DNA of 64,000 nucleotides, from contig CAVOOO010000009.1 of assembly GCA_963697585.1 (NCBI GenBank), positions 599,295 to 663,294 of the forward strand, given 5' to 3'. The DNA comes from an uncultured Chloroflexia bacterium. GTDB lineage: Bacteria; Chloroflexota; Dormibacteria; Aeolococcales; Aeolococcaceae. Every line of letters begins with the position of its first letter. Positions within the stretch are counted from its first letter, which is position 1. Below are positions 795 to 63,900 of the stretch, piece by piece. The translations under genes and the position numbers were made by a program. Below the pieces are notes generated by a model. The model ran no database searches, was not told the DNA's origin, and was given only the letters and a program-made list of their open reading frames with translations.

Positions 795-1304
795 ATGCTC
801 GCCGCCACGGCCGTCCAGACCCAGACCACCGTGCTCAGCATCGTGGTCTCCCTCGCGGTGCTCGCCTTCCTCATGTACCGGCAGCTCCAGGTCCGGCCGG
901 TGCGGGCGAGCTTCGCCCTCCCGGTGGTGCTGATCATCGTGGGGGCCGCCTCCCTCTCCGGCGGTGGACCCAACGGGCTCGGCTCCGCCGGGCGGGTGGC
1001 GATCCTGGTCGCTCTGCTGGTGGGCGACGCGGCCGGCCTGGGTGCGGTGCGCGCCCTCACCGTGCGGCTCTGGCGGAGCGGCGACGTCGTGCTCCGCCAG
1101 GGGACCTGGGTGACCATGGTGCTCTGGATCGTCGGCGTCGGGATCCACGCGCTGGTGGGGGCGCTGGCCGACATCAGCGACAGCACCCTCCTGCTCTACA
1201 TGGGGATCACCCTCGGCGCGCAGCAGCTGGTCGTGCAGACACGGGCGCGCCAGCCCGGAAGGCTGCCCCAGCGGAGCGCGGCGGGAGCCGGCTGGCAGTC
1301 CTGA
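795..1304 (+). CDS. Hypothetical integral membrane protein (about 4 TM, DUF1453/CcdC-like impression)
   Basis: 169-aa ORF with several hydrophobic helices (VLSIVVSLAVLAFLMY, ALPVVLIIVGAASL, VAILVALLVGDAAGLGAV, WVTMVLWIVGVGIHALVGAL). GC3-rich codon usage. Confidence 0.6.
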   Translation: MLAATAVQTQTTVLSIVVSLAVLAFLMYRQLQVRPVRASFALPVVLIIVGAASLSGGGPNGLGSAGRVAILVALLVGDAAGLGAVRALTVRLWRSGDVVLRQGTWVTMVLWIVGVGIHALVGALADISDSTLLLYMGITLGAQQLVVQTRARQPGRLPQRSAAGAGWQS

Positions 1305-1400
1305 GCGGCCCCGGCCCCGGCGAGGACCACGGGTGACGCCCTCCAGGGACGGCCTCTCGGCCTCCCCGGAGGTGGGGGTAGTCGCGCACCCCACGTCGTT

Positions 1401-1653
1401 GGCACGGCACCGGCGCTCACCCGGTCCCCCGGCTCAGGCCAGGTTGACTGCGGCACCCCCGGGGGACCGCTTAGCGCTGCTTCCTTCCGGACCTGACGCG
1501 GTTCACGGGCCCGGGCTGCGCAGGACCCAACCATCAACACCGGAGAGGTCGGAGCGGACCCGGCGACGCGCCCCCTCGGTGGGGAATTCGACCCCGCTAT
1601 AGCGGATTGCGGGTACAGGGCACCGCTGGCTCCCCATCTAGCGCGACCGTGCC
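1401..1653 (-). ncRNA. ffs: Signal recognition particle RNA, large (Bacillus-type, Alu-domain-containing) form
   Basis: The minus strand contains the universal domain IV motif GUCAGGUCCGGAAGGAAGCAGC (plus 1478-1499). It also has an Alu-domain stretch, AGCGGUGCCCUGUACCCGCAAUCCGCUAUAGCGGGGUCGAAUUCCCC, closely matching the B. subtilis scRNA as I recall it. 5' GGCACGG (1653-1647) pairs with 3' CCGUGCC (1407-1401). Ends are approximate. Confidence 0.8.
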
Positions 1654-1655
1654 CC

Positions 1656-1661
1656 ATTGTA
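1656..1661 (-). promoter_or_regulatory. Candidate -10 box TACAAT for the SRP RNA
   Basis: The minus strand reads GGTACAATGGGGCACGG. The hexamer sits immediately upstream of the predicted 5' pairing strand of the SRP RNA. Confidence 0.35.
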
Positions 1662-1827
1662 CCGGGCCGCGGACCCGGGCGCCGCCCCGAGCGACGCACC
1701 CGACGCCGCCCGAGCGTTGGTCAGGCGTGGGTCAGGCGGGCGGCGCCGGCCAGCTTGAAGGCGGGGAGATGGGAGAAGGCGCCCGGCGCCACCATCGGCC
1801 GCCCGGCGCGAGGCCCAGGCCGCGGGC

Positions 1828-3309
1828 TCAGCGGAGCGCCGTGGCCGCCTGGTTGGCCGCGTAGAGGAGCGGCCCGGCCACCACGGTCGCCACCACCCCG
1901 AAGACGGCGCACGCCACCCCGACCAGCGCGGTGAGCCGGGGCGTCTCGGAGATCACGGCGGGCTGCTCGTCATCCTCGACGAGGATGGTCGCCATCCACC
2001 GGACCGCCGGGATCGCGTAGATCACCGAGGCGACGACACTCGCCGCCGCCACCCACGCGTAGCCGGCGGCCACCGCCGACTCCGCGATGAGGATGCGGGC
2101 GATGAACCCGCCCAGGGGGGGCAGGCCGGCCAGCCCGGCCAGGCCCAGGCAGAGCAGGACCGCGGTGGTGGGCGAGCGCCGCAGCAGCCCGCGCACGTCG
2201 GCGACCGCGGTGCCGATGCCGTCGATCTCGAGCCGGGCCACGGCGAGGAAGCTGGCCTGGACCGAGAGGACGAAGATGACCAGCGCGAAGAGCAGGGCGG
2301 TCACCCCACCGGCGGGCCTGTAGTCGCCACCGATGCCGCCGGCCATCACGGCGACGAGCAGGAGGCCACCCTGAAGGCAGGCACCGAGCCCGATCAGGCG
2401 GCGGAGACCGCCCGCCGCCAGGCTGAGCAGCGCCGGGTAGAGGCAGGCCGCCGCTCCCAGGACGGCCGCCAGGAGCACCCAGGGGCGCAGGCTGGTGCTG
2501 AATCCGCTGACCAGGACCCGGACCAGGGCGATCCCGCCCGCCGCGGCGGCGAGGCTGACCACCGTCCCGGCGACCGCGCCGCTGCTGACCGAGGCGACCT
2601 GGAGCACCCAGCGGTGAAGGGGCGGCGCCCCGACCAGGTAGGCGAGACCGAGCACGGTGAGGGCCAGCCCGAGGCCCTCCAGCGGCCCGGCATGGGCGAG
2701 CAGGCCGGCCGTGGCGGCGAGGTTGGTGCTCCCGGTCGCGCCATACACGATGGCCAGCCCGTAGAGCAGGAGCGCGAGCGCCACGCCACCGCCCGCCAGC
2801 GCGCGGAGAGCGACCTCGCCGGGCGCCTCGGCGGTCTTCTCGAGCGCCACCAGCCCGACCAGGCTGATCACCAGGAGACCGAGCCCCACCACCAGCATCC
2901 CCATCTCCCACTGGATGGCGACCACGGTCCCGCCCGCGGTGGCGCTGAGCACCAGGGCGTGGAAGGCGGGGAGGCGCGGGCCGAGACGGGTGGCGGCGGC
3001 GCCGCTGGTCAGGACCGCGACCAGGCCGGTCGCGCAGAGGAGTACGACACCGAACACCCCTATCCGGTCGGCGACCACCGCCCCGGAATAGGCGGCCAGG
3101 CCGAGGCCGCGGGTGTGCTCGAGCCCGTCCAGGGTGATGACGCCGGCGATGCCGGCCCCGACCAGGGCGATGGAGCTGAGCCACCGGTGGAACGAGGCCG
3201 GCAGTCCGGGGCGCAGCCGGCCGATCAGGGCGGTCACCGCGGCGAGCGCGAGCAGCAGCAACGTCGGCAGCATGGTCGTGAACACCGCGGCTCCGTTGGG
3301 GTTGGGCAT
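1828..3309 (-). CDS. nuoN: NuoN-like antiporter-type membrane subunit (divergent complex I paralogue)
   Basis: 493 aa, polytopic. Motifs LYGLAIVYGATGS, GAPPLHRW and RRLIGLG match the NuoN/Mrp-D family architecture. Start overlaps the nuoM-like stop. Confidence 0.8.
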   Translation of the reverse strand: MPNPNGAAVFTTMLPTLLLLALAAVTALIGRLRPGLPASFHRWLSSIALVGAGIAGVITLDGLEHTRGLGLAAYSGAVVADRIGVFGVVLLCATGLVAVLTSGAAATRLGPRLPAFHALVLSATAGGTVVAIQWEMGMLVVGLGLLVISLVGLVALEKTAEAPGEVALRALAGGGVALALLLYGLAIVYGATGSTNLAATAGLLAHAGPLEGLGLALTVLGLAYLVGAPPLHRWVLQVASVSSGAVAGTVVSLAAAAGGIALVRVLVSGFSTSLRPWVLLAAVLGAAACLYPALLSLAAGGLRRLIGLGACLQGGLLLVAVMAGGIGGDYRPAGGVTALLFALVIFVLSVQASFLAVARLEIDGIGTAVADVRGLLRRSPTTAVLLCLGLAGLAGLPPLGGFIARILIAESAVAAGYAWVAAASVVASVIYAIPAVRWMATILVEDDEQPAVISETPRLTALVGVACAVFGVVATVVAGPLLYAANQAATALR

Positions 3310-4850
3310 CAGCTCGTCCCCGGGAAGAGGATGTAGGCGGCGCCGTTCTCGAAGAGCCCGGCGAAGTGGCCGGGAACGACCCCGATGATCACCATCACGG
3401 CGAGCAGGACGCCGAAGAAGGTCACCTCGAGAGGCCCGACGTCGCGCACCCGGACGAAGACGTCACGGGAGGCGCCGAGGAAGATCCGCTGGGCGGCCCA
3501 GAGCAGGACGCCGCCGGTCAGGAGCGTCCCCGCGAGCACCACGGTGGTCGCCCAGCGGTGGACCGGGAAGGAGCCGGTGAAGATCAGGAACTCGCCGCTG
3601 AAGCCGGCGAGCAGGGGCACCCCGGCCGCGGTGAGGGCGGCCGCGAGCCAGAACGCCGCGAGGTACGGCACCTGCCAGGCGAGACCGCCGAGCTGTGAGA
3701 TGCGCACCCGGCGGGTGCGCTCCTGGATGGCGGACGTGAGCAGCATCAGGGTGGCCACCACCAGGCCGCGGGCGATCAGCAGGAACATGATCCCGGTCAC
3801 CGACACGGTGGTGTGGCCGGCGACGCCGAGCAGCACCACCCCCATCATCACGGTCCCCACGTGCCCGATGAGCCGGCGCAGGTCGTCGGCGCGCAGCGCT
3901 GCCAGCCCTCCCCACACCACCGTCACCACGGCCAGACCCGCGAAGAGGAGCGAGTAGCTCGACCCGACCGTGGGGAAGAAGCCGAAGGCGACGTGGATGA
4001 GGCCGTACGCGCCCAGGCTGGGGAGGACCGCGGCGAAGACCACCGACAGCACACCGGTGCTGTCCTCCTCGAGATCGAGCAGGGCCCCGTGCAGTGGCAC
4101 CACGGCCATGACCAGCAGGGAGGCCCCGGTGATCAGCCAGAAGGCGACCTGCTCGCCCGTGCCATGGAGGGTGACCGGCACCGATCCCATGTCAAAGGAG
4201 TGCGCGCCACTCTGGAAGGCGATCAGGGCGGCGGCGAGCGTGAGCAGGGCGGTGGACACCAGGGTGAGCGCGGCGTAACGCTCCGCGGCCCGGACCCGAT
4301 GGCCGTGCCCGAAGGCCCGGATCAGCAGGAACACCGGAACCACCGGGAGGGCCCAGAAGATGAGGTAGAGGACCCAGTCGTACGAGACCAGGACCCCGAG
4401 GGCCGCGGTCTCCAGGGTGAGCAGGGAGACGGTCAGCAGCTTGACGTGACGGTTGTTGCGCCACGCCGCCAGCGCGGTGCAGAAGAAGACGACCGTCACC
4501 ATGGTCACGAGCGCCAGCCCGAGGCCGTCGGCGTCGAGGTGATAGCTCGAGGCGATCGGGAACGAGGTCAGCCAGTTGTGCTGCTCCACCAGGTCGCCAC
4601 CGGGGCGGCCCCCGGTGCCCACGGAGACGTCGGCGATCTGGCTCTCCAGGGCCCAGACCGCGAAGAAGAGCGCGGCCGAGGCACCCGAGGTGCCCAGCGA
4701 CTTGATCCGAGCCCGCTGCTCACGGGTCTGCTCGGGAAGGAAGATCACGATCAGGGCGAAGACGAGGGCGCTCCACACCAGGGCCGTGAAGACGAGGGTC
4801 GGGAAGCTCACGCCGCTCGTGGTGGTCGTGGTCTGGGCCAGGAGGCTCAT
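3309..4850 (-). CDS. nuoM: NuoM-like antiporter-type membrane subunit (divergent)
   Basis: 513 aa. VVPLHG, LGAYGLI, DLRRLIGHVG and GFSGEFLIFTGSF align with E. coli NuoM VVPLHGW, AAYGLL, DIKRLIAY and NFVGEFMILFGSF. Confidence 0.85.
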   Translation of the reverse strand: MSLLAQTTTTTSGVSFPTLVFTALVWSALVFALIVIFLPEQTREQRARIKSLGTSGASAALFFAVWALESQIADVSVGTGGRPGGDLVEQHNWLTSFPIASSYHLDADGLGLALVTMVTVVFFCTALAAWRNNRHVKLLTVSLLTLETAALGVLVSYDWVLYLIFWALPVVPVFLLIRAFGHGHRVRAAERYAALTLVSTALLTLAAALIAFQSGAHSFDMGSVPVTLHGTGEQVAFWLITGASLLVMAVVPLHGALLDLEEDSTGVLSVVFAAVLPSLGAYGLIHVAFGFFPTVGSSYSLLFAGLAVVTVVWGGLAALRADDLRRLIGHVGTVMMGVVLLGVAGHTTVSVTGIMFLLIARGLVVATLMLLTSAIQERTRRVRISQLGGLAWQVPYLAAFWLAAALTAAGVPLLAGFSGEFLIFTGSFPVHRWATTVVLAGTLLTGGVLLWAAQRIFLGASRDVFVRVRDVGPLEVTFFGVLLAVMVIIGVVPGHFAGLFENGAAYILFPGTS

Positions 4851-6871
4851 GTGGTGTGCACCGGGAGCTGTCCACCGGCCGCCAGGACGCTGGCGCCGAC
4901 CAGGAGCAGCACCAGGACCAGGGCCACCCCGAGCCCGATCCGCAGTCTCCGCACCCGCACCCGGCTCAGCGACCAGGCGACGATCTCCACGCCCTCACCC
5001 GGGGCGTCGTAGAGGGGCTCGACCAGCCCGTGGTCGAGCGCCACCACCTCACCGGCCAGGGTGTCGCCGGCCCGCGCCGCGAGGCGGATCACCCAGCCCA
5101 CCGCCGCCGGTGCGGCCGCGGCGGCGGCCGGGATGCGGAGCCGGCTCCAGAGGCGTGCGCCTCCCAGCCGCGCCAAGGCGAGCCCACCCCCGCCTCCGAC
5201 CAGGAGAACCGCCACCGCGACCCCGAGGGCCGCCCAACTGAGGGGAAGAGCCTGGTGGCCGGTCCCGAAGTAAATCCAGCGGCTGAAGGTGAGCGCCGGC
5301 ACCCGCCCCTTGCCCTGCCCGATGCCGCTGATGCCGGGAAGCCCGATGAGCACGGCCGCCACGGTGCCCGCGGCCGACCACGCCTGTATCCCCCGAAGCC
5401 GCGGCTCGGCCTCGGTGAGCCGCTCCGCCATGAAGCCGCGCCGGGCCACCGGCGATCCGGCGCAGACGGCGGCGACCAGGCGAACCGCGTAGAGGGCGGT
5501 GAGCACGATGGCGGTGATCGCCAGCAGGGCGACCAGGACCTGGACCCAGCCGGCCATGTGCCCGCCGTTCGGGAAGCGGTTGAGGAAGATGGTCGAGACG
5601 AGGTCGTAGCCGACCAGGTCGAGGCCACCGGCGGCCAGCGCCCAGAGGCCGAGGCTCAGGCTGGTGCGGCGCATCCGGCGCCAGGCTCCACTCATGGAGG
5701 CGATCTCCCGGGTGCGGTAGGCGCGGGCGAGGCTGCCGGCCGTGACCAGCAGCAGCAGGCTGAGCGGGGCGCTGACGAAGGCGATGAGCAGACCGTCGCT
5801 GTAGCCGCCGGCGCCGAGGGCGGTCATCGCCAGGGCCATCTGCGCGGACGCGGAGAGCAGCGCCAGCCGGTAGATGTCCCGGGCGCCCAGGCAAGCGGCG
5901 CTCAGGCAGACGGCGGTGACCGCACCGACCACCGCGAGGACGCTCAGGGCGTGGGCGGTGACCATCAGCAGCTCGTACACCCGCGCGAGCAGCACCACCC
6001 CGCCGAGCAGGGAGATGGAGATGGCGCCGAGCACCGGCAGCGGAGCCTCACGGAGCCCGAGCAGCCAGCCGGTGAACGGGAGCTGGGCCGCCCGCACCAG
6101 CGCGGCAACCAGCAGGAGCCCGCTGAAGATCACCAGGCTGCGGTAGCCGAGGCCGGGAACCGACCAGTGAGCGGCGGTCTGCCAGGCGGGGTCGAGGACC
6201 CGGAAGTCGGTGATGTCGAAGGCGCCGGAGGACGGCTGCGTCTCGAGGCCGATGAAGACACCGAGCTTGTCGACCACGAAGGCCATCGCCAGCAGCAGGA
6301 TGACGTCGGCGCCGGCGAGCACGGCGAAGGCTCGGCGGGCGGCCGTCCCGGTGCCGGGCCGGTGCCACCAGTGAAGGGCCAGCACCAGGATCGTCGCGGT
6401 CACGACCCCGAGCGCCAGCCAGAGCTGGAAGAGTCCCGGGCTCGCCACCACCGCGATCATCGCGGCGGCGAGGAGCGACGAGGCCCAGAAGAAGCGGCGG
6501 TAGGCGGCCTCACGCTCCAGCATCGCGGTGCCGAGCCCCTGGACGGCGAGGACCAGGAAGGGGATGAGGACCATCAGGCTCGCGCTCAGGTTGTCGACCC
6601 GCACGCCGACCGCGACCTGGAAGGTCGACGGGAAGGTGGCGGTCTCGCTCGGATCCACGGCCAGCGAGAGGAAGTTGAGGGTCGAGAACGCGGGGGTGAC
6701 GCTGGTGGTCTCGTGGGCCAGGCGGTAGCCGAGGACGATCAGGGCCATGACCAGGGTCGCGCCCATGAAGCCCATGCACACCTGGGCCGCCCGGCGCGGG
6801 GTCTCGGCCACGAAGGAGAACGCGCAGCCCCCCAGCGGGAGCAGCAGGATGGCCCAGGCGTAGGTGTACAT
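4847..6871 (-). CDS. nuoL: NuoL-like antiporter-type membrane subunit (divergent); start set at MYTYAWAILLLPL
   Basis: ATG at 6871 overlaps the nuoK-like stop (ATGA). The 111 residues upstream in ORF 4847..7204 overlap nuoK in another frame. Motifs AAQLPFTGWL and DIYRLALLSASAQ correspond to SAQLPLQTWL and DIKRVLAYSTMSQ. Confidence 0.8.
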   Translation of the reverse strand: MYTYAWAILLLPLGGCAFSFVAETPRRAAQVCMGFMGATLVMALIVLGYRLAHETTSVTPAFSTLNFLSLAVDPSETATFPSTFQVAVGVRVDNLSASLMVLIPFLVLAVQGLGTAMLEREAAYRRFFWASSLLAAAMIAVVASPGLFQLWLALGVVTATILVLALHWWHRPGTGTAARRAFAVLAGADVILLLAMAFVVDKLGVFIGLETQPSSGAFDITDFRVLDPAWQTAAHWSVPGLGYRSLVIFSGLLLVAALVRAAQLPFTGWLLGLREAPLPVLGAISISLLGGVVLLARVYELLMVTAHALSVLAVVGAVTAVCLSAACLGARDIYRLALLSASAQMALAMTALGAGGYSDGLLIAFVSAPLSLLLLVTAGSLARAYRTREIASMSGAWRRMRRTSLSLGLWALAAGGLDLVGYDLVSTIFLNRFPNGGHMAGWVQVLVALLAITAIVLTALYAVRLVAAVCAGSPVARRGFMAERLTEAEPRLRGIQAWSAAGTVAAVLIGLPGISGIGQGKGRVPALTFSRWIYFGTGHQALPLSWAALGVAVAVLLVGGGGGLALARLGGARLWSRLRIPAAAAAAPAAVGWVIRLAARAGDTLAGEVVALDHGLVEPLYDAPGEGVEIVAWSLSRVRVRRLRIGLGVALVLVLLLVGASVLAAGGQLPVHTT

Positions 6872-7197
6872 CAGCGGGGATCCGCCTCGACATCGATGTA
6901 CTCGTCGGTGTCCAGGCTCTCCCGCCGGCGCCGGAGGAGGGCCACCAGGGCGGCGCCGACGAGGATCACGGCGGCGCACACCACCACGGCGGCGAGGGCA
7001 ACCACCTCGCCCTGGGGAGGCCCGAGGCTGCCACCCCGGACGGCCGTGAAGCCGGCGAACGCGATCACCGAGGCGAGCAGCAGGACGGCGAGGCTGGTCA
7101 GCAACCCGAAGGCGTCGCGCCGGCTCACCAGGCCGAATGCCCCGATCGCGAAGACGATGCCGCTCAGGATGGCCACCTGGCCTGGCCCGATGCTCAT
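6871..7197 (-). CDS. nuoK: NuoK-like small membrane subunit (divergent)
   Basis: 108 aa with 3 TM. The N-terminus ILSGIVFAIGAFGLVSRRDAFGLL resembles NuoK LF.IG..GV..RRN. Position between the J-like and L-like genes fits. Confidence 0.75.
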   Translation of the reverse strand: MSIGPGQVAILSGIVFAIGAFGLVSRRDAFGLLTSLAVLLLASVIAFAGFTAVRGGSLGPPQGEVVALAAVVVCAAVILVGAALVALLRRRRESLDTDEYIDVEADPR

Positions 7198-7790
7198 CCG
7201 CCACCCCCCGGGCTGGCGGCCTGACGCTTGGCGCGGGCGGCGGCGCGATCCTCGCGCCGGCGGCGCATCCTCGCCTCCCGCTCCTGATGAGCGCGGTGGC
7301 GCTCGACGTGCTCGGCCTCGTCGGGATCGGTCCGGCCGATGGCGAGCGCGACCAGGACGGCGGCCACGCCCACCACCACCAGCAGACCGGCGGTCACCGG
7401 CGCCTGATGGTTGAGGACGCTGCTCAGCGCGGTCTCGACCCCGCGCGGGTGCCAGCCGCTGCCGGCGGCGAGCGCGGTCCCATCGAGCACGACCAGCGCC
7501 AGCACCGCGAGGCCCGCCGCATACAGCCAGCGGCTGAGCGGCAGTGGGCTCGCCCGGGATCCCAGGGCTCCCCGGCGGTCCATCTCCACCACCGTCGCGA
7601 CGGTGGCCAGGAGGATCACAACCTCGAGAAGGGCGAGCAGGTACTCATGACCGACGACCAGGAAGATGCCGATCGAGACGGCCACCGCGACGGCCGCCAC
7701 CGCGGACTCGCGGGCGCCGCGCAGGCCGACGGCCGCAGCGCAGCTCAACACGATCAGCACCGCGGCGATGTAGAAGCCGGCCGCGCTCAC
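7194..7790 (-). CDS. nuoJ: NuoJ-like membrane subunit (divergent)
   Basis: 198 aa. N-terminal FYIAAVLIVLSCAAAV...GHEYLLALLEVVILLATVATVV resembles the NuoJ TM1-3 pattern. 4-nt overlap with nuoK-like. Confidence 0.7.
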   Translation of the reverse strand: MSAAGFYIAAVLIVLSCAAAVGLRGARESAVAAVAVAVSIGIFLVVGHEYLLALLEVVILLATVATVVEMDRRGALGSRASPLPLSRWLYAAGLAVLALVVLDGTALAAGSGWHPRGVETALSSVLNHQAPVTAGLLVVVGVAAVLVALAIGRTDPDEAEHVERHRAHQEREARMRRRREDRAAARAKRQAASPGGGG

Positions 7791-7897
7791 GGGCGACCGG
7801 CTCCAAGGGGCTCACGGAGGGGCGGAGAGGTGGGACGGCGGCGGGGCCGGGGCATCGCCGCGAGATTGTACCGGTGGGGACGGGCCACCCCATTGAT

Positions 7898-8278
7898 TCA
7901 GACCGAGTCGTCCTCCTCCAGGTCCCGCCGGGAGGGCGGTTGCCAGCGCTGCTCGGGTGGGACCACCCGCTCGAGGAAGAGCACCAGGCTGAGCCCGAGG
8001 AGGGCGATGATCACGCCGGCGATGGTCACCGCGTCGACATAGAGCGGGACCAGGGGGATCTTGATCGAGAGATCCCAGACGCTCGAGGGCCGTCCCGTCC
8101 CCGCCACCACGTTGCGCTCTCCGACCAGCCCGACCACGAACAGCGCCGCCCCCACCCCGATCACGTGGAAGAGGGCATTGCGGTGGCGCACCGCGATCCA
8201 GAAGCTGTAGGCGGACACGGTGCAGCCGGCCAGAACGGCCAGCGAGGCGAGGACGATCTGGTACCAGGCGGGAGCCAT
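7898..8278 (-). CDS. Hypothetical 3-TM membrane protein (NuoA-sized, no recognisable NuoA motif)
   Basis: 126-aa ORF. Its ATG overlaps the mnmA stop (ATGA at 8276-8280). Three hydrophobic helices and an acidic C-terminus. Confidence 0.55.
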   Translation of the reverse strand: MAPAWYQIVLASLAVLAGCTVSAYSFWIAVRHRNALFHVIGVGAALFVVGLVGERNVVAGTGRPSSVWDLSIKIPLVPLYVDAVTIAGVIIALLGLSLVLFLERVVPPEQRWQPPSRRDLEEDDSV

Positions 8279-9432
8279 CAGGCCGACGCCGCCTCCACCA
8301 CCCCGCCGCCCAGGACCTCGTCGCCCCGGTAGAGCACCACCGACTGGCCCGGGGAGACCTGCCCGACCGGCTCCGGGAAGCGAAGCTCGACCGAGCGGCC
8401 GCCCGCGCCGATGACCTCGGCCGGGTGGGCCCGGCCGTGAGCCCGGAGCTGAGCCTCGACCCGGCCGCCGCCCTCCGGGGGACGGCCACTCACCCAGCGG
8501 CAGTCGCCCGCGGTCAACCGGCGCCGCCCGAGCTCGCCGGCGGGGCCGACCACCACCCGGTTGGCGGCGGCGTCGAGCTCCAGGACGTAGAGGGGGACGG
8601 CGTCGGGTCGGTCGGGGGCTATCCCCAGCCGTCCCCGCTGCCCGACGGTGTAGAAGGGCAGGCCCCGGTGCTCGCCGAGCACGCGTCCCGCGCCATCGAC
8701 GATCGGCCCCGGCTGGAACCGACCGGCAAGGCGCCGGCTCAGGTCACCGGCGAGATCGTCTCCGACGAAGCAGAGCTCCTGGGAGTCCGGCTTGGCGGCG
8801 GTGCCCAGTCCGAGGGCGGCCGCCTCGGCGCGCACGTCGGCCTTGCGGCCCACGTCGCCGAGAGGCAGGAGCGCGGCGCCGAGCTGGGCCTGGTCGAGGC
8901 GGTGGAGGGTGTAGGACTGGTCCTTGCCCACCTCGGAGGCACGGTGGAGCGTCCAGCTCTCCGCGCGCCGTCCGATCCGGGCGTAATGGCCGGTGGCAAC
9001 GTGGGTGGCGCCGATGGCCCGGGCGCGCGCGAGGAGCACGCCGAACTTGACCCGCTGGTTGCAGCGCACGCAGGGGTTGGGCGTCCGGCCGGAAGCGTAG
9101 TCGTCCTCGAAGCCGGTGATGACCTCGGCGGCGAACTCGCCCTCGAGATTCCAGGTCAGGTGGCGGATGCCCAGCCGGTCGGCGACCCGCCGCGCGTCCT
9201 CGACGGCGTCGACGGAGCAGCACCCCCGGTCGCGGACCTGCTCGCGGTCACCGGCCCACATCGCCAGGGTCACCCCCCAGGTCGTCACGCCCCGGGCCAC
9301 GCAGCGGGCCGCGGCCACGCTGCTGTCCACCCCACCGGACATCGCCACCGCGACCACGGCTCCCCGGGGCAGCAGGTCGAAGGGGTCGGCGGGCACGACC
9401 GGGGCGGGGGCCTCGAGGGTGGCGACGGTCAT
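8278..9432 (-). CDS. mnmA: tRNA-specific 2-thiouridylase MnmA (CxxC variant)
   Basis: From ATG 9432: PP-loop VAMSGGVDSSV, GRTPNPCVRCNQRVKF, GHYAR, KDQSY, DSQELCF. The upstream part of ORF 8278..10197 is read-through. Confidence 0.92.
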   Translation of the reverse strand: MTVATLEAPAPVVPADPFDLLPRGAVVAVAMSGGVDSSVAAARCVARGVTTWGVTLAMWAGDREQVRDRGCCSVDAVEDARRVADRLGIRHLTWNLEGEFAAEVITGFEDDYASGRTPNPCVRCNQRVKFGVLLARARAIGATHVATGHYARIGRRAESWTLHRASEVGKDQSYTLHRLDQAQLGAALLPLGDVGRKADVRAEAAALGLGTAAKPDSQELCFVGDDLAGDLSRRLAGRFQPGPIVDGAGRVLGEHRGLPFYTVGQRGRLGIAPDRPDAVPLYVLELDAAANRVVVGPAGELGRRRLTAGDCRWVSGRPPEGGGRVEAQLRAHGRAHPAEVIGAGGRSVELRFPEPVGQVSPGQSVVLYRGDEVLGGGVVEAASA

Positions 9433-9611: not shown

Positions 9612-9887
9612 TCAGCCGCCGGCGACGGCCGGGACGATGGAGATGTCGTCGCCCGCCGCGACCGGGGTGTCGAGCCCGCCGCCGAATCGGATGTCGGCGT
9701 CGTTGACGTAGATGTTGATGAACTGGCGGAGCTTGCCTCCGTCGTCGTAGAGGCGGTCCCGGAAGCCGGGGAACCGGACCTCGAGATCGGCCAGGGCGGC
9801 GGCGACGGTGCCGCCCTCGACCTCGACCTGGGAGCTGCCCGCGGTGAGCCGGCGCAGCGGACCGGGGACCCGAACGTTCACTGGCAT
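9612..9887 (-). CDS. MoaD/ThiS-family ubiquitin-like sulfur carrier protein (CysO/TtuB-like), C-terminal GG
   Basis: 91 aa ending ...FINIYVNDADIRFGGGLDTPVAAGDDISIVPAVAGG. This is nearly colinear with M. tuberculosis CysO ...[36 protein letters not shown] (from memory). Confidence 0.85.
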   Translation of the reverse strand: MPVNVRVPGPLRRLTAGSSQVEVEGGTVAAALADLEVRFPGFRDRLYDDGGKLRQFINIYVNDADIRFGGGLDTPVAAGDDISIVPAVAGG

Positions 9888-26385: not shown

Positions 26386-27225
26386 CTAGGCGGCCTCGCC
26401 CTCGAGCAGACGGATCTGGGCGAGCAGCTCGCGGACCGACCCGATCTTGGTCCCGGCCAGCTCGGACATGAGCGCGAGGATCCGGCGCTGCACCGGCGCC
26501 TCGTGGTCCCGCCCGGGCAGGTAGGCGTTGAGCATGCGGCGGATGTAGTGCGGGTCCTCGAGCAGCGACACCACCGAGGGCTCGGTGATGGTCGTCGGGT
26601 GCTTGGGGTTGTCGTTGGTGGTGCGAATCATCCAGAGCGCCATCCGCAGGATGGTCGGGACGACCTCGGGCTTGTTCTTCACCGCCTTGCGCAGGTACTT
26701 GGCGTAGGCGGCGCCGTGGCGCAGCTCGTCGGCGGCGAGCACCTTGAAGATCTGGCGCAGCACCGGCTCGGGAGCGTTGGCGCTGAAGGCCGTGTACCAG
26801 TGGGCCAGGCGCTGCTCGCCGCAGAAGTGCATGGTCAGGGTCTCGATCGCCGGGCCCTCGTCGAAGCTGATCCGAAGCCGGGGCAGCTCGGCCTCCTCGA
26901 TGACCTCGCCGACCCGCTCCAGGTACTTGCGGAGCACCAGGTGATGCTTCATCTCCTCATAGAACCAGACCGAGATGAAGCTGCAGAAGTCGATGTCCGC
27001 ATAGAAGTCGCGGAGGAACATCTCGGTGGCGTAGAGGGCGGACAGCTCGGTGAGGCAGACCTCGCGGACGTCGAAGATCCACCCCGGGGTGAGCTTCTCC
27101 GGCTCGATGGCATCCCAGTCGATGTCGCGACTCAGATTCCAGCGGGCCCGCTCGAGATTGACGAAGAGTTCATCGTAGAGCACAAATCCAGTCTCCTGGT
27201 GCAGAATGGCCAAAGCATCCGCCAT
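26386..27225 (-). CDS. Ferritin-like di-iron carboxylate protein (acyl-ACP desaturase-like four-helix bundle)
   Basis: From ATG 27225. The ligand pattern E / ExxH / E / ExxH is visible: LYATEMF, YEEMKHH, CGEQRLAHWY, ADELRHG. Confidence 0.7.
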   Translation of the reverse strand: MADALAILHQETGFVLYDELFVNLERARWNLSRDIDWDAIEPEKLTPGWIFDVREVCLTELSALYATEMFLRDFYADIDFCSFISVWFYEEMKHHLVLRKYLERVGEVIEEAELPRLRISFDEGPAIETLTMHFCGEQRLAHWYTAFSANAPEPVLRQIFKVLAADELRHGAAYAKYLRKAVKNKPEVVPTILRMALWMIRTTNDNPKHPTTITEPSVVSLLEDPHYIRRMLNAYLPGRDHEAPVQRRILALMSELAGTKIGSVRELLAQIRLLEGEAA

Positions 27226-27274
27226 CCTGGCGATGCAGCGGCACTCTTTTTGTGTGAGGTGGACAATTTGGCCA
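27207..27274. promoter_or_regulatory. Divergent promoter region with inverted 8-mer TGGCCAAA ... TTTGGCCA (candidate operator)
   Basis: Arms lie at 27207-27214 and 27267-27274, symmetric about roughly 27240. Each lies about 10 nt inside the 5' end of one of the two divergent genes. The local GC content is clearly lower. Confidence 0.3.
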
Positions 27275-28476
27275 CGGTATCCAAACCGCGACCGGCGGTC
27301 TTGGTCGAGTTGGCCAGTCTGCCCCCGGCCGTGACCGCCCGGCTGCTCGCCGATGCCGACGCCATCGCGGGCCGGATGGCTCGCCGGATCGCCGCCGAGA
27401 TCAGCCTGCCGGGGCACTTCAACACCGTCTCCTACTACCGTTCGATCGTCTCGGCCTGCCGGGATGCGCTCCGGGTCCTGGTGCGCCGCCTCCACGACGG
27501 CCGCGGCCCGCGGGCCGGCGACCTCGACCGGCTGGCCCAGACCGGTGCGGTGCAGGCCGACCTCGGCCTCCCCTTCGACGTCCTCCTCTCCGCGTACCGG
27601 GTGGCGGCCAAGGTGGTCTGGGAGGAGGTGGTGGGCACGGTCGCCCGCGAGCACGAGATGCCCTCGGCGACCCTCATCGCCCTGGCCTCTCAGATCATCG
27701 AGTACCTCGACGAGATCTCGGCGGCGGTCGGCGCCGCCTACCTGGAGCGGCGCGAGCGGCTGCTCCGCCGGCGCGACCAGGATCGGGACCGGGTGCTCCA
27801 CCGCCTGATGGCCGGTGACGTCTCGGCCGAGCTTCGGGTGGCGGCGGCGGCCTGCGAGCTGGACCTCACGCCCCCGTACCGGGTGATCTCGTGCGCCTGG
27901 CCGGGGGACCAGGACCAGCTCGCCGAGCTGGTGACGCGGCCGCTGCGGGCGCTGACCGTCGCCGCCTCGGAGGACACCTGGCTGCTGCTCCTCGATCCGC
28001 GCACCGACCCCCTCCCGGTCTGCGTGGCGGCCGGCAAGGCCAACCCGGGAGCCGTCTTCGGCTTCGGGCCGGTGGCCGAGCGGCTGGCCGACGTCGCCGG
28101 AGCCGCCCAGCGCGCCCAGCGCGCCCTCGACGTGGGCCAGCGTCTGGAGCCGGAGCGCCGGGTGCACGACGACGCCGAGCTGGGCGTCTTCGCCGTCCTC
28201 GACAATGATCCCGAGGCGGTGCGCCGTTTCGTCGCCACCATCCTGGGGCCGCTCAACGCCGCCGGGGCCGATCGCCGCGGCGAGCTCCACGAGACCCTCG
28301 AGGCGGTGCTCTCGACCTCCGGGCTGGGCGAGGCCGCCGCCAAGCTGGGGCTCCACCGCCACACCGTGGTGTACCGGCTGCAGCGGATCCGCGACCGCGG
28401 CCTGCCCATCGACGACCCCGCCCGCCGCCACCTGCTCTGGCTCGCGCTCCGCGCGCGCCGGCTGCTGCCGGCCTGA
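27259..28476 (+). CDS. PucR/CdaR-family transcriptional regulator
   Basis: C-terminal PucR HTH: LHETLEAVLSTSGLGEAAAKLGLHRHTVVYRLQRIRDRGL. Start (GTG 27259) is approximate. The upstream part of ORF 26503..28476 is antisense to the di-iron gene. Confidence 0.8.
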   Translation: MDNLATVSKPRPAVLVELASLPPAVTARLLADADAIAGRMARRIAAEISLPGHFNTVSYYRSIVSACRDALRVLVRRLHDGRGPRAGDLDRLAQTGAVQADLGLPFDVLLSAYRVAAKVVWEEVVGTVAREHEMPSATLIALASQIIEYLDEISAAVGAAYLERRERLLRRRDQDRDRVLHRLMAGDVSAELRVAAAACELDLTPPYRVISCAWPGDQDQLAELVTRPLRALTVAASEDTWLLLLDPRTDPLPVCVAAGKANPGAVFGFGPVAERLADVAGAAQRAQRALDVGQRLEPERRVHDDAELGVFAVLDNDPEAVRRFVATILGPLNAAGADRRGELHETLEAVLSTSGLGEAAAKLGLHRHTVVYRLQRIRDRGLPIDDPARRHLLWLALRARRLLPA

Positions 28477-56934: not shown

Positions 56935-57008
56935 GGCGACGTAGCCAAGTGGTAAGGCACGGGTCTGCAAAACCCTGATCGTGGGTTCGATTCCCACCGT
57001 CGCCTCCA
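56935..57008 (+). tRNA. tRNA-Cys (GCA), CCA encoded
   Basis: GGCGACG-TA-GCCA..GGC-..-CTGCAAA loop (anticodon GCA), T arm GTGGG-TTCGATT-CCCAC, CGTCGCC-T-CCA. Confidence 0.92.
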
Positions 57009-63828: not shown

Positions 63829-63900
63829 GCGGGAGTAGCTCAGTGGTAGAGCACTACCTTGCCAAGGTAGGGGTCACGGGTTCGAGCCCCGCCTCCCGCT
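63829..63900 (+). tRNA. tRNA-Gly (GCC), CCA not encoded
   Basis: GCGGGAG-TA-GCTC-AGTGGTA-GAGC-A-CTACC-TTGCCAA-GGTAG-GGGTC-ACGGG-TTCGAGC-CCCGC-CTCCCGC-T. Confidence 0.9.

Follow-up and report, generated by a model that had tools for sequence, protein, structure and literature searches.

A nuoJ-N gene cluster of Dormibacteria that stands without nuoA-I and has lost the relay residues of complex I

Genes for five membrane proteins related to subunits J, K, L, M and N of respiratory complex I lie together on the minus strand of a 64,000-nucleotide stretch of DNA (hereafter the window) from an uncultured bacterium of the Dormibacteria (contig CAVOOO010000009.1, assembly GCA_963697585.1). Start and stop codons of adjacent genes overlap by 1 or 4 nt at all junctions, and the G+C content at third codon positions (GC3), taken from a codon-position GC screen and the list of open reading frames (ORFs), is 0.88-0.95 for the J-N genes in a window of 72-78% G+C. 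Pfam recognizes Proton_antipo_M (PF00361) in N (E = 2.4e-25), M and L, the last with an additional weak match to PF00662, and Oxidored_q2 (PF00420) in K (E = 1.8e-13). The J protein has no Pfam match, and its identity comes from a profile-profile comparison with hhalign, in which an 8-sequence clade profile aligned with the NuoJ profile over 182 columns at 99.1% probability (E = 8e-19). An NCBIfam match of J to the MprF flippase (20.8 bits against a cutoff of 600) was set aside as compositional noise. Scores against the NCBIfam models of the Nuo subunits fall below the respective cutoffs: slightly for M (261.3 bits; cutoff 263.8) and K (51.5; 57), and widely for N (145.6; 332.6) and L (113; 407.5). 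The first-pass annotation of this DNA had described five translationally coupled J-N homologues and no nuoA-I genes in the 64 kb, and both statements were confirmed; tblastn with NuoA, B, C, D, H and I of relatives, and with NuoE, F, G, H and I of Actinoplanes, detects none of these subunits in the window.

Few features in bioenergetics are as conserved as the Glu/Lys/His relay of NuoL, M and N. Its residues were checked by two routes, phmmer searches against solved complex I structures and MAFFT L-INS-i alignment with E. coli NuoJ-N (NC_000913.3), and all positions are given in E. coli numbering. In the M protein of the window the changes are E144A, K234V, K265S, H322M and H348R. L carries E144G, K229R, H334I, H338S and K342S, with no His at position 254, and N carries E133G, K217L, K247A and K395R. 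The residues of the E-channel are affected as well: K shows E36A and E72V, with R25 and R26 kept, and J shows Y59L together with a 3-residue deletion in transmembrane helix (TM) 3, the helix with the pi-bulge region. Two positions stand apart. K399 of L, in TM12, is deleted in the MAFFT alignment and corresponds to the Arg of FLNRFP in the phmmer alignment, leaving the register ambiguous, and E407 of M is present in the window and in a minority of its relatives, among which the states are D, E, N and Y. With these two reservations both routes uphold the losses of Lys, Glu and His that had been proposed from hand alignments of M, L, N and K, whose register proved correct throughout.

The close homologues of the cluster (60-92% identity) come from metagenome-assembled genomes (MAGs) of Candidatus Dormibacteria and from peat and soil metagenomes. 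About 25 loci form a clade with the window, with M identity ranging from 56 to 100%, and all have the order (FAA hydrolase)-(unknown)-thiS-mnmA-3TM-J-K-L-M-N, in which 3TM denotes a gene for a small protein with three transmembrane helices; none of them contains nuoA-I, a NuoA remnant or NuoH. Across the window and 20-44 clade sequences the TM5 Glu, TM7 Lys, TM8 Lys/His, TM11 His and TM12 Lys are lost in L, M and N, and the pattern is stable in 20-24 distinct clade sequences per subunit and in 44 cluster representatives for M. Several former relay sites drift, including M144 (T/A/S/L), M234 (A/T/V), M322 (L/F/M) and K72 (L/V/E/A). Other sites have become newly fixed: H348R and S319G in M (each 44 of 44), position 229 of L, where Lys is replaced by Arg or His (24 of 24), and, in N, K395R (21 of 22) and K158R (20 of 22). 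In 56 canonical NuoM sequences, 72 positions reach a conservation of 90% or more, and the clade retains 34 of them; it keeps 16 of the 24 Gly/Pro positions and none of the 5 polar ones, and among 13 conserved titratable positions all five that belong to the relay (E144, K234, K265, H348, E407) are lost in the clade. Residue loss is graded among relatives, being absent from full nuo operons (all relay residues examined are canonical in loci L029, L034 and L035), partial in L031, L032 and L116, and nearly complete in the window clade. An exhaustive profile search of 1.84 billion representatives was made with a degenerate query profile that enriches for degenerate NuoM-like matches. Among the 147 full-length proteins nearest to the query, about 40 depart from the canonical state in at least one of E144, K234, K265 and E407, from which it follows that degenerate NuoM-like proteins are not rare. 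Since the Lys/Glu/His relay is missing, the canonical mechanism of complex I or Mrp is not available to the module. The earlier statement that it cannot work like either system is supported for that mechanism, and canonical pumping has very likely been lost.

The fold, by contrast with the relay, appears to be preserved. M was modelled with AlphaFold2 from an alignment of 78 sequences (predicted local distance difference test score 90.3, predicted template modelling score 0.91). The model has the beta-hairpin that is typical of antiporter-like subunits and, as is also typical of them, its TM7 and TM12 are discontinuous, with breaks at residues 249-254 and 410-414; its top matches in the PDB by Foldseek are NuoM/NdhD chains (TM scores 0.87-0.94), among them NuoM 8qby_M (E = 2e-25, TM scores 0.88/0.90). 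By this model, which is of M only, the antiporter-like fold is shown to be kept. In canonical complex I the lateral-helix region and last TM helix of NuoL clamp L, M and N together. The C-terminal region of the L protein is alignable with the lateral helix of canonical relatives, and hydropathy places a final hydrophobic TM helix at residues 645-663.

Selection on the J-N genes was estimated by the NG86 method from the ratio of nonsynonymous to synonymous substitution rates (dN/dS), comparing the window with four clade loci. J-N give ratios of 0.06-0.40, where mnmA gives 0.21-0.25 and the other neighbouring genes 0.06-0.30 (a frameshifted match makes one of the flank values spurious); because dS is probably underestimated at a GC3 of about 95%, it is the comparison with the neighbours that is decisive. 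The five ORFs are intact and of constant length in 20-26 distinct sequences per gene, and about 25 loci, the most divergent at 56-65% identity, preserve the overlaps and lengths. We are confident that J-N are under purifying selection. In view of this maintenance, the suggestion of "a repurposed scaffold or an undescribed membrane complex" is a fair label for an orphan module derived from Nuo subunits.

The module was not, however, invented separately. In L034, L035 and L152 the order thiS-(NIL)-mnmA-small TM gene-nuoA-B-C-D-H-I-J-K-L-M-N occupies the same place, and L153 has that order as far as nuoH, where its contig ends; a scan of genome contigs for NuoH has L034 and L035 among the matches listed. 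The full operon of Dormibacteria encodes an 11-subunit complex I without NuoEFG. Downstream of the operon in L152 lie lipid genes (Lip_A_acyltrans, GT4) that also follow N in L029, L031 and L116, and L152 thereby allows the entire ancestral neighbourhood to be reconstructed. Because locus and order are the same in the full-operon relatives, the window cluster is their positional descendant, and its J-N genes are almost certainly the remainder of a nuoABCDHIJKLMN operon from which nuoA-I was deleted at the same locus. L152 also carries a gene for a type II NADH dehydrogenase (Pyr_redox_2 and NDH2_C) between the small gene that follows mnmA and nuoA. The Actinoplanes and other Actinomycetota loci L006-L028, which entered the comparison through a chance match to the 8-mer TGEQVAFW in NuoJ, are ordinary nuoE-N operons.

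Orphan J-N clusters occur in several further lineages at the same ancestral locus, recognized by mnmA upstream and/or PIM-lipid genes downstream, and what precedes J differs among them (Table 1). The NuoA remnant of L116 matches NuoA of L152 by BLASTP (E = 4e-6, 35% identity over TM2-3) and is missing the FDVE motif; only nuoB-I was removed there, a boundary unlike that of the window clade. In the clade of L032, L033, L364 and L365 a conserved gene for an FNR-like flavoprotein of 251-260 aa (NAD_binding_1 / FAD_binding_6) fills the former nuoA-I site, tightly packed between the small gene after mnmA and J. This clade retains more of the relay (K342, K399 and D400 of L; E133, K217 and K395 of N), the FNR-like gene of L032 has no homologue in the window, and its association with J-N may represent a further, undescribed hybrid complex. 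Neighbour-joining trees of mnmA and of M interleave orphan and full-operon lineages. Together with the differing deletion boundaries, this indicates that loss of nuoA-I has recurred, in at least two and probably at least three independent deletions, each sparing J-N. The cluster of L115 and the proteins P0083, P0084, P0092, P0096 and P0102 belong to a more distant degenerate family, in which M reads A/R/H/R/P/G/G at seven key positions; the three small ORFs of the L115 cluster (77, 166 and 91 aa) have no Pfam match, and its L, M and N genes are followed by CDP-OH_P_transf-dnaX-ybaB-recR.

A canonical partner for the orphan arm could in principle be encoded elsewhere in the genome. Searches with NuoD returned two identity tiers from Dormibacteria-type lineages, 76-93% and 55-62%, and none of the matches was assignable to window-type contigs, which is a weak negative. 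Of the 42 NuoD proteins of Dormibacteria type, 41 contain the motif GPHHPSTHGVLH; of 78 others, 2 have the shorter GPHHPSTHG. A 36-nt back-translation of GPHHPSTHGVLH was scanned in full against one genome per GTDB species and gave 95 matches; among the 80 of these that are listed there are eight Dormibacteria-labelled MAGs and none of five window-type representatives (CAWCBS01, CAWJCO01, CAWDLK01, JBEKIT01 and JBEKXW01). That the listed matches include no NuoD of the class type from window-type MAGs argues against a vertically inherited quinone-reducing module (Q-module) that has merely been relocated. The same motif is common to dozens of haloarchaeal genomes (loci L226, L267 and L274-L348) and rare in other bacterial relatives, a distribution that hints at a specific relationship between the haloarchaeal and the Dormibacteria-type 11-subunit complex I.

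Upstream of J, the 126-aa 3-TM protein had been taken as the only upstream partner of the module. Its ORF does overlap the mnmA stop, sharing one nucleotide with the start of the stop codon as had been described, and its dN/dS is 0.08-0.30. A profile hidden Markov model (HMM) of the 3-TM clade matches small proteins encoded after mnmA in L153 (1e-22), L151 (6e-21), L152 (6e-19) and L116 (1e-16), the range of E values for the family being 1e-16 to 1e-23. As L152 and L153 carry full nuo operons alongside a homologue, the 3-TM gene is an old mnmA-coupled neighbour and not a specific partner of the module, and its linkage to J-N in related genomes is not specific to orphan clusters. The protein has no similarity to NuoA, of which it might have been a relic, or, in pairwise comparison, to the small protein of L034.

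Between the 3-TM gene and J lie 107 nt in which scans for sigma-70 and terminator consensus sequences and Rfam searches found nothing, and in which comparative alignment revealed a conserved element. The 20-mer GGTACAATCTCGCGGCGATG, which contains a -10-like TACAAT, does not vary among the 25 clade loci that cover the region and is found in no other locus, the other orphan lineages included; it has one match in the window, where 0.01 would be expected by chance. A conserved GC-rich hairpin stands just upstream of the -10-like box, with 11 pairs and one compensatory pair in an RNAalifold consensus of 12 loci; its support from covariation is weak. From its sequence and conservation, GGTACAATCTCGCGGCGATG is probably the J-N operon's own promoter. 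The 20-mer also includes the clade-invariant ATG of a short upstream ORF (uORF), which spans 20-34 codons in 19 distinct sequences and whose stop overlaps the J start (as ATGA, GTGA or TGATG) in all of them, even in two loci with indels. The encoded peptide shows no conservation of sequence, and open frames arise easily in GC-rich DNA, which makes the evidence moderate that this uORF may act as a short-leader or leaderless coupling element behind a dedicated promoter.

The reading that we consider to account best for these observations, and which we hold with evenly balanced confidence, is that of a surviving membrane arm, kept for a non-catalytic role after nuoA-I was deleted in place. From an ancestral 11-subunit operon between mnmA and the lipid-synthesis genes, the genes of the part that reduces quinone (nuoA, B, C, D, H and I) were almost certainly removed where they stood, and the five remaining proteins would still assemble into a membrane complex. 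Such a complex would receive no redox energy and would move no protons by the mechanism of complex I or Mrp. It would correspond to a pseudoenzyme made up of several subunits, most likely retained for structural reasons as a membrane scaffold or as a stabilising partner of another membrane complex, although a structural role as such can be proposed only tentatively. Somewhat below even confidence stands the broader view that free-standing membrane arms have been retained, repeatedly and independently, after loss of the redox half in Dormibacteria and related lineages, and that the window clade, having shed its relay under continued purifying selection, may exemplify a new "pseudo-antiporter" class with a non-bioenergetic function.

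Several observations weigh against a non-catalytic membrane arm. The scaffold role is what is left by default once the losses have been counted; no protein emerged as a candidate partner, and the orphan clusters have no recurring new gene beside them. A non-canonical ion chemistry might draw on the conserved residues at L229 (R/H), N395 (R), N158 (R) and M348/407 (R with D/E). A complex I or Q-module of a different type may be encoded elsewhere, as the NuoD scan was motif-specific and the MAGs are incomplete. The AlphaFold2 model of M is biased towards the canonical fold by the canonical sequences in its alignment, and the trees of mnmA and M carry no support values. Divergence of J-N relative to mnmA is about 1.0-1.5-fold in the orphan clade, compared with 0.26-1.2-fold in the L034/L035 pair, and this faster evolution indicates that constraint on the module is relaxed, yet clearly present.

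The replacement residues invite the alternative that J-N form a secondary transporter, driven by a gradient in the manner of Mrp and moving an ion or solute by way of L229, N395, N158, the Arg348-Asp/Glu407 pair of M and the TM7 His. Ion transport by isolated NuoL and NuoN, or their complementation of Mrp subunits, has been reported. The replacements are conserved rather than random (R/H at L229 in 24 of 24, R at N395 in 21 of 22, R at M348 in 44 of 44), the TM7 His is retained in M and N, and the less degenerate orphans L032 and L031 keep many relay residues. We nevertheless regard a transporter as unlikely: Arg is unable to shuttle protons inside the membrane, the TM5 Glu has become Gly, Ala or Thr in all three antiporter-like subunits, the five conserved polar axis residues of M are all lost, as are the E-channel residues of NuoK and NuoJ, and M144, M234, M322 and K72 drift freely among small or hydrophobic residues. 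Genes resembling MrpB, E, F or G were not found by Pfam in the cluster or its neighbours.

Quite improbable, in our judgement, is a split or hybrid complex in which J-N would dock on a Q-module, or on another redox or peripheral module encoded elsewhere, and would still convert energy. Split nuo operons are common in prokaryotes (PMC12361115), and the FNR-like gene at the nuoA-I site of the L032-type clade shows that new neighbours can be recruited. Against this stand the deletion in place at the ancestral locus with neither a NuoA remnant nor NuoH in about 25 clade loci, the disappearance of the residues that carry the signal from the quinone site (Tyr59 and the TM3 region of NuoJ, Glu36 and Glu72 of NuoK), and the occurrence of the class NuoD motif in eight other Dormibacteria MAGs and in no window-type representative among the matches listed. 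That J-N are leftovers in slow decay with no present function is strongly disfavoured and highly improbable, for even though the catalytic residues are all lost, evolution relative to mnmA is faster than in full-operon lineages and bit scores lie under the NCBIfam cutoffs, in about 25 loci the five ORFs are undisrupted, keep the same lengths and still overlap, dN/dS (0.06-0.40) resembles that of housekeeping neighbours at a GC3 of 0.88-0.95, new invariant residues have arisen, a promoter-like element and a uORF are conserved, and J-N have been kept repeatedly in independent lineages.

Among known systems the closest to this relay-free arm is the membrane arm of the 11-subunit complex I (L034, L035 and L152), with which it shares the locus, gene order and overlapping frames, the NuoM fold, the lateral helix and last TM helix of NuoL, and many of the structural Gly and Pro residues. 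It differs in that NuoA, B, C, D, H and I are missing from the locus, in the loss of relay and E-channel residues, in scoring below the NCBIfam equivalog cutoffs, and in its faster relative rate of evolution. Mrp (Mnh/Pha) antiporters are also independent of redox chemistry, with MrpA being NuoL-like, MrpD NuoM/N-like and MrpC NuoK-like, and the model of M also matches the MrpD structures 6z16_D and 7qru_D (TM scores of about 0.83-0.90). Mrp, however, keeps the Lys/Glu relay needed for transport and includes MrpB, E, F and G, which Pfam did not detect in the window cluster or its neighbours; the window subunits are nearer to NuoL/M/N than to MrpA/D, and they score far lower with the NCBIfam models of Mrp than with those of Nuo. 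As for the CO2-hydrating NDH-1MS and DAB systems, Pfam found no CupA/CupS or DabA partner in the window cluster and neighbours, and proton-pathway residues are absent in the window. In concept the module comes nearest to pseudoenzymes and the Ehr ("energy-converting hydrogenase related") complexes, which resemble it as homologues that remain under selection after the residues defining their chemistry were lost. In Ehr complexes the redox subunit is degenerate, being without catalytic-site ligands, and the antiporter-like subunits are canonical; in the window module it is the redox half that is missing and the ion-translocating half that is degenerate. The other orphan clusters (L031, L116, L151, L115 and L032/L364) retain the same gene set, with residue loss that ranges from partial to extensive and is usually less complete. 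No description of such a module was found by full-text searches of the literature on Dormibacterota complex I or on orphan and degenerate antiporter-like modules, which is no proof of novelty.

A five-subunit arm that is free of the relay and still under selection amounts to a natural "all-relay knockout", and it suggests that a membrane arm can have selectable value in the absence of redox coupling and proton pumping. If the reading of a retained non-catalytic arm is correct, canonical complex I may share a non-bioenergetic function that has gone unnoticed, such as organising the membrane or stabilising respiratory or lipid-synthesis complexes. The graded series from full operon through partly degenerate to fully degenerate orphan offers a means of separating structural from catalytic residues. 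There is also a practical consequence: automated labels such as "NADH-quinone oxidoreductase subunit M" overstate the respiratory capacity of abundant peat and soil bacteria, and metabolic reconstructions in which nuoJ-N of Dormibacteria is taken for complex I would be wrong for the window clade.

Table 1. Positions of the features discussed, in the window and in related loci.
Locus	Feature	Positions	Strand	Remarks
Window	N-like gene	1828-3309	minus	493 aa
Window	M-like gene	3309-4850	minus	513 aa
Window	L-like gene	4847-6871	minus	674 aa; start set at 6871, the ORF-list start at 7204 being an upstream GTG
Window	K-like gene	6871-7197	minus	108 aa
Window	J-like gene	7194-7790	minus	198 aa; divergent; GTG start; Arg/Glu-rich C-terminal tail
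Window	uORF	7787-7855	minus	22 codons; clade-invariant ATG within the 20-mer; TGA stop overlaps J start (GTGA)
Window	20-mer GGTACAATCTCGCGGCGATG	7853-7872	minus	Clade-invariant; contains -10-like TACAAT (7865-7870)
Window	GC-rich hairpin	7875-7892	minus	Just after the 3-TM stop, just upstream of the -10-like box
Window	3-TM protein gene	7898-8278	minus	126 aa; translationally coupled to mnmA
Window	mnmA	about 8278-9420		5' of 3-TM gene, J-N cluster downstream
Window	thiS	9612-9887		Further upstream of J-N cluster
Window	Large bacterial SRP RNA gene	1382-1646	minus	RF01854, 178 bits
Window	Hydrophobic ORF	795-1304	plus	169 aa; no Pfam match
Window	ORF with weak FA_desaturase_2 match	26386-28431	minus	681 aa
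Window	tRNA gene (Rfam)	56935-57005	plus	
Window	tRNA gene (Rfam)	63829-63900	plus	
L116	NuoA remnant	6669-6953		94 aa; degenerate; directly upstream of J
L151	3-TM homologue			Directly upstream of J
L031	Hopanoid genes			Upstream of J
L032/L033/L364/L365 clade	FNR-like flavoprotein gene			Conserved; upstream of J, after small protein
L032	FNR-like gene	6344-7120		
L364	FNR-like gene	4289-5071		
L365	FNR-like gene	865-1620		
L115	Degenerate cluster	1465-7610		Three small unrecognisable ORFs, then L, M, N
L152	Type II NADH dehydrogenase gene	6314-7600		

The remaining genes of the window are of housekeeping type (trp genes, Lhr helicase, EPSP synthase, TatC and heme synthesis), and two tRNA genes are recognized by Rfam. 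The N-like gene is followed on the same strand, after about 180 nt, by the gene for the large bacterial signal recognition particle (SRP) RNA. The 681-aa ORF with a weak FA_desaturase_2 match coincides with locally lower G+C (0.69). The 169-aa hydrophobic ORF is convergent to the N-like gene and adjoins the cluster in several clade loci too, at 63-91% identity.

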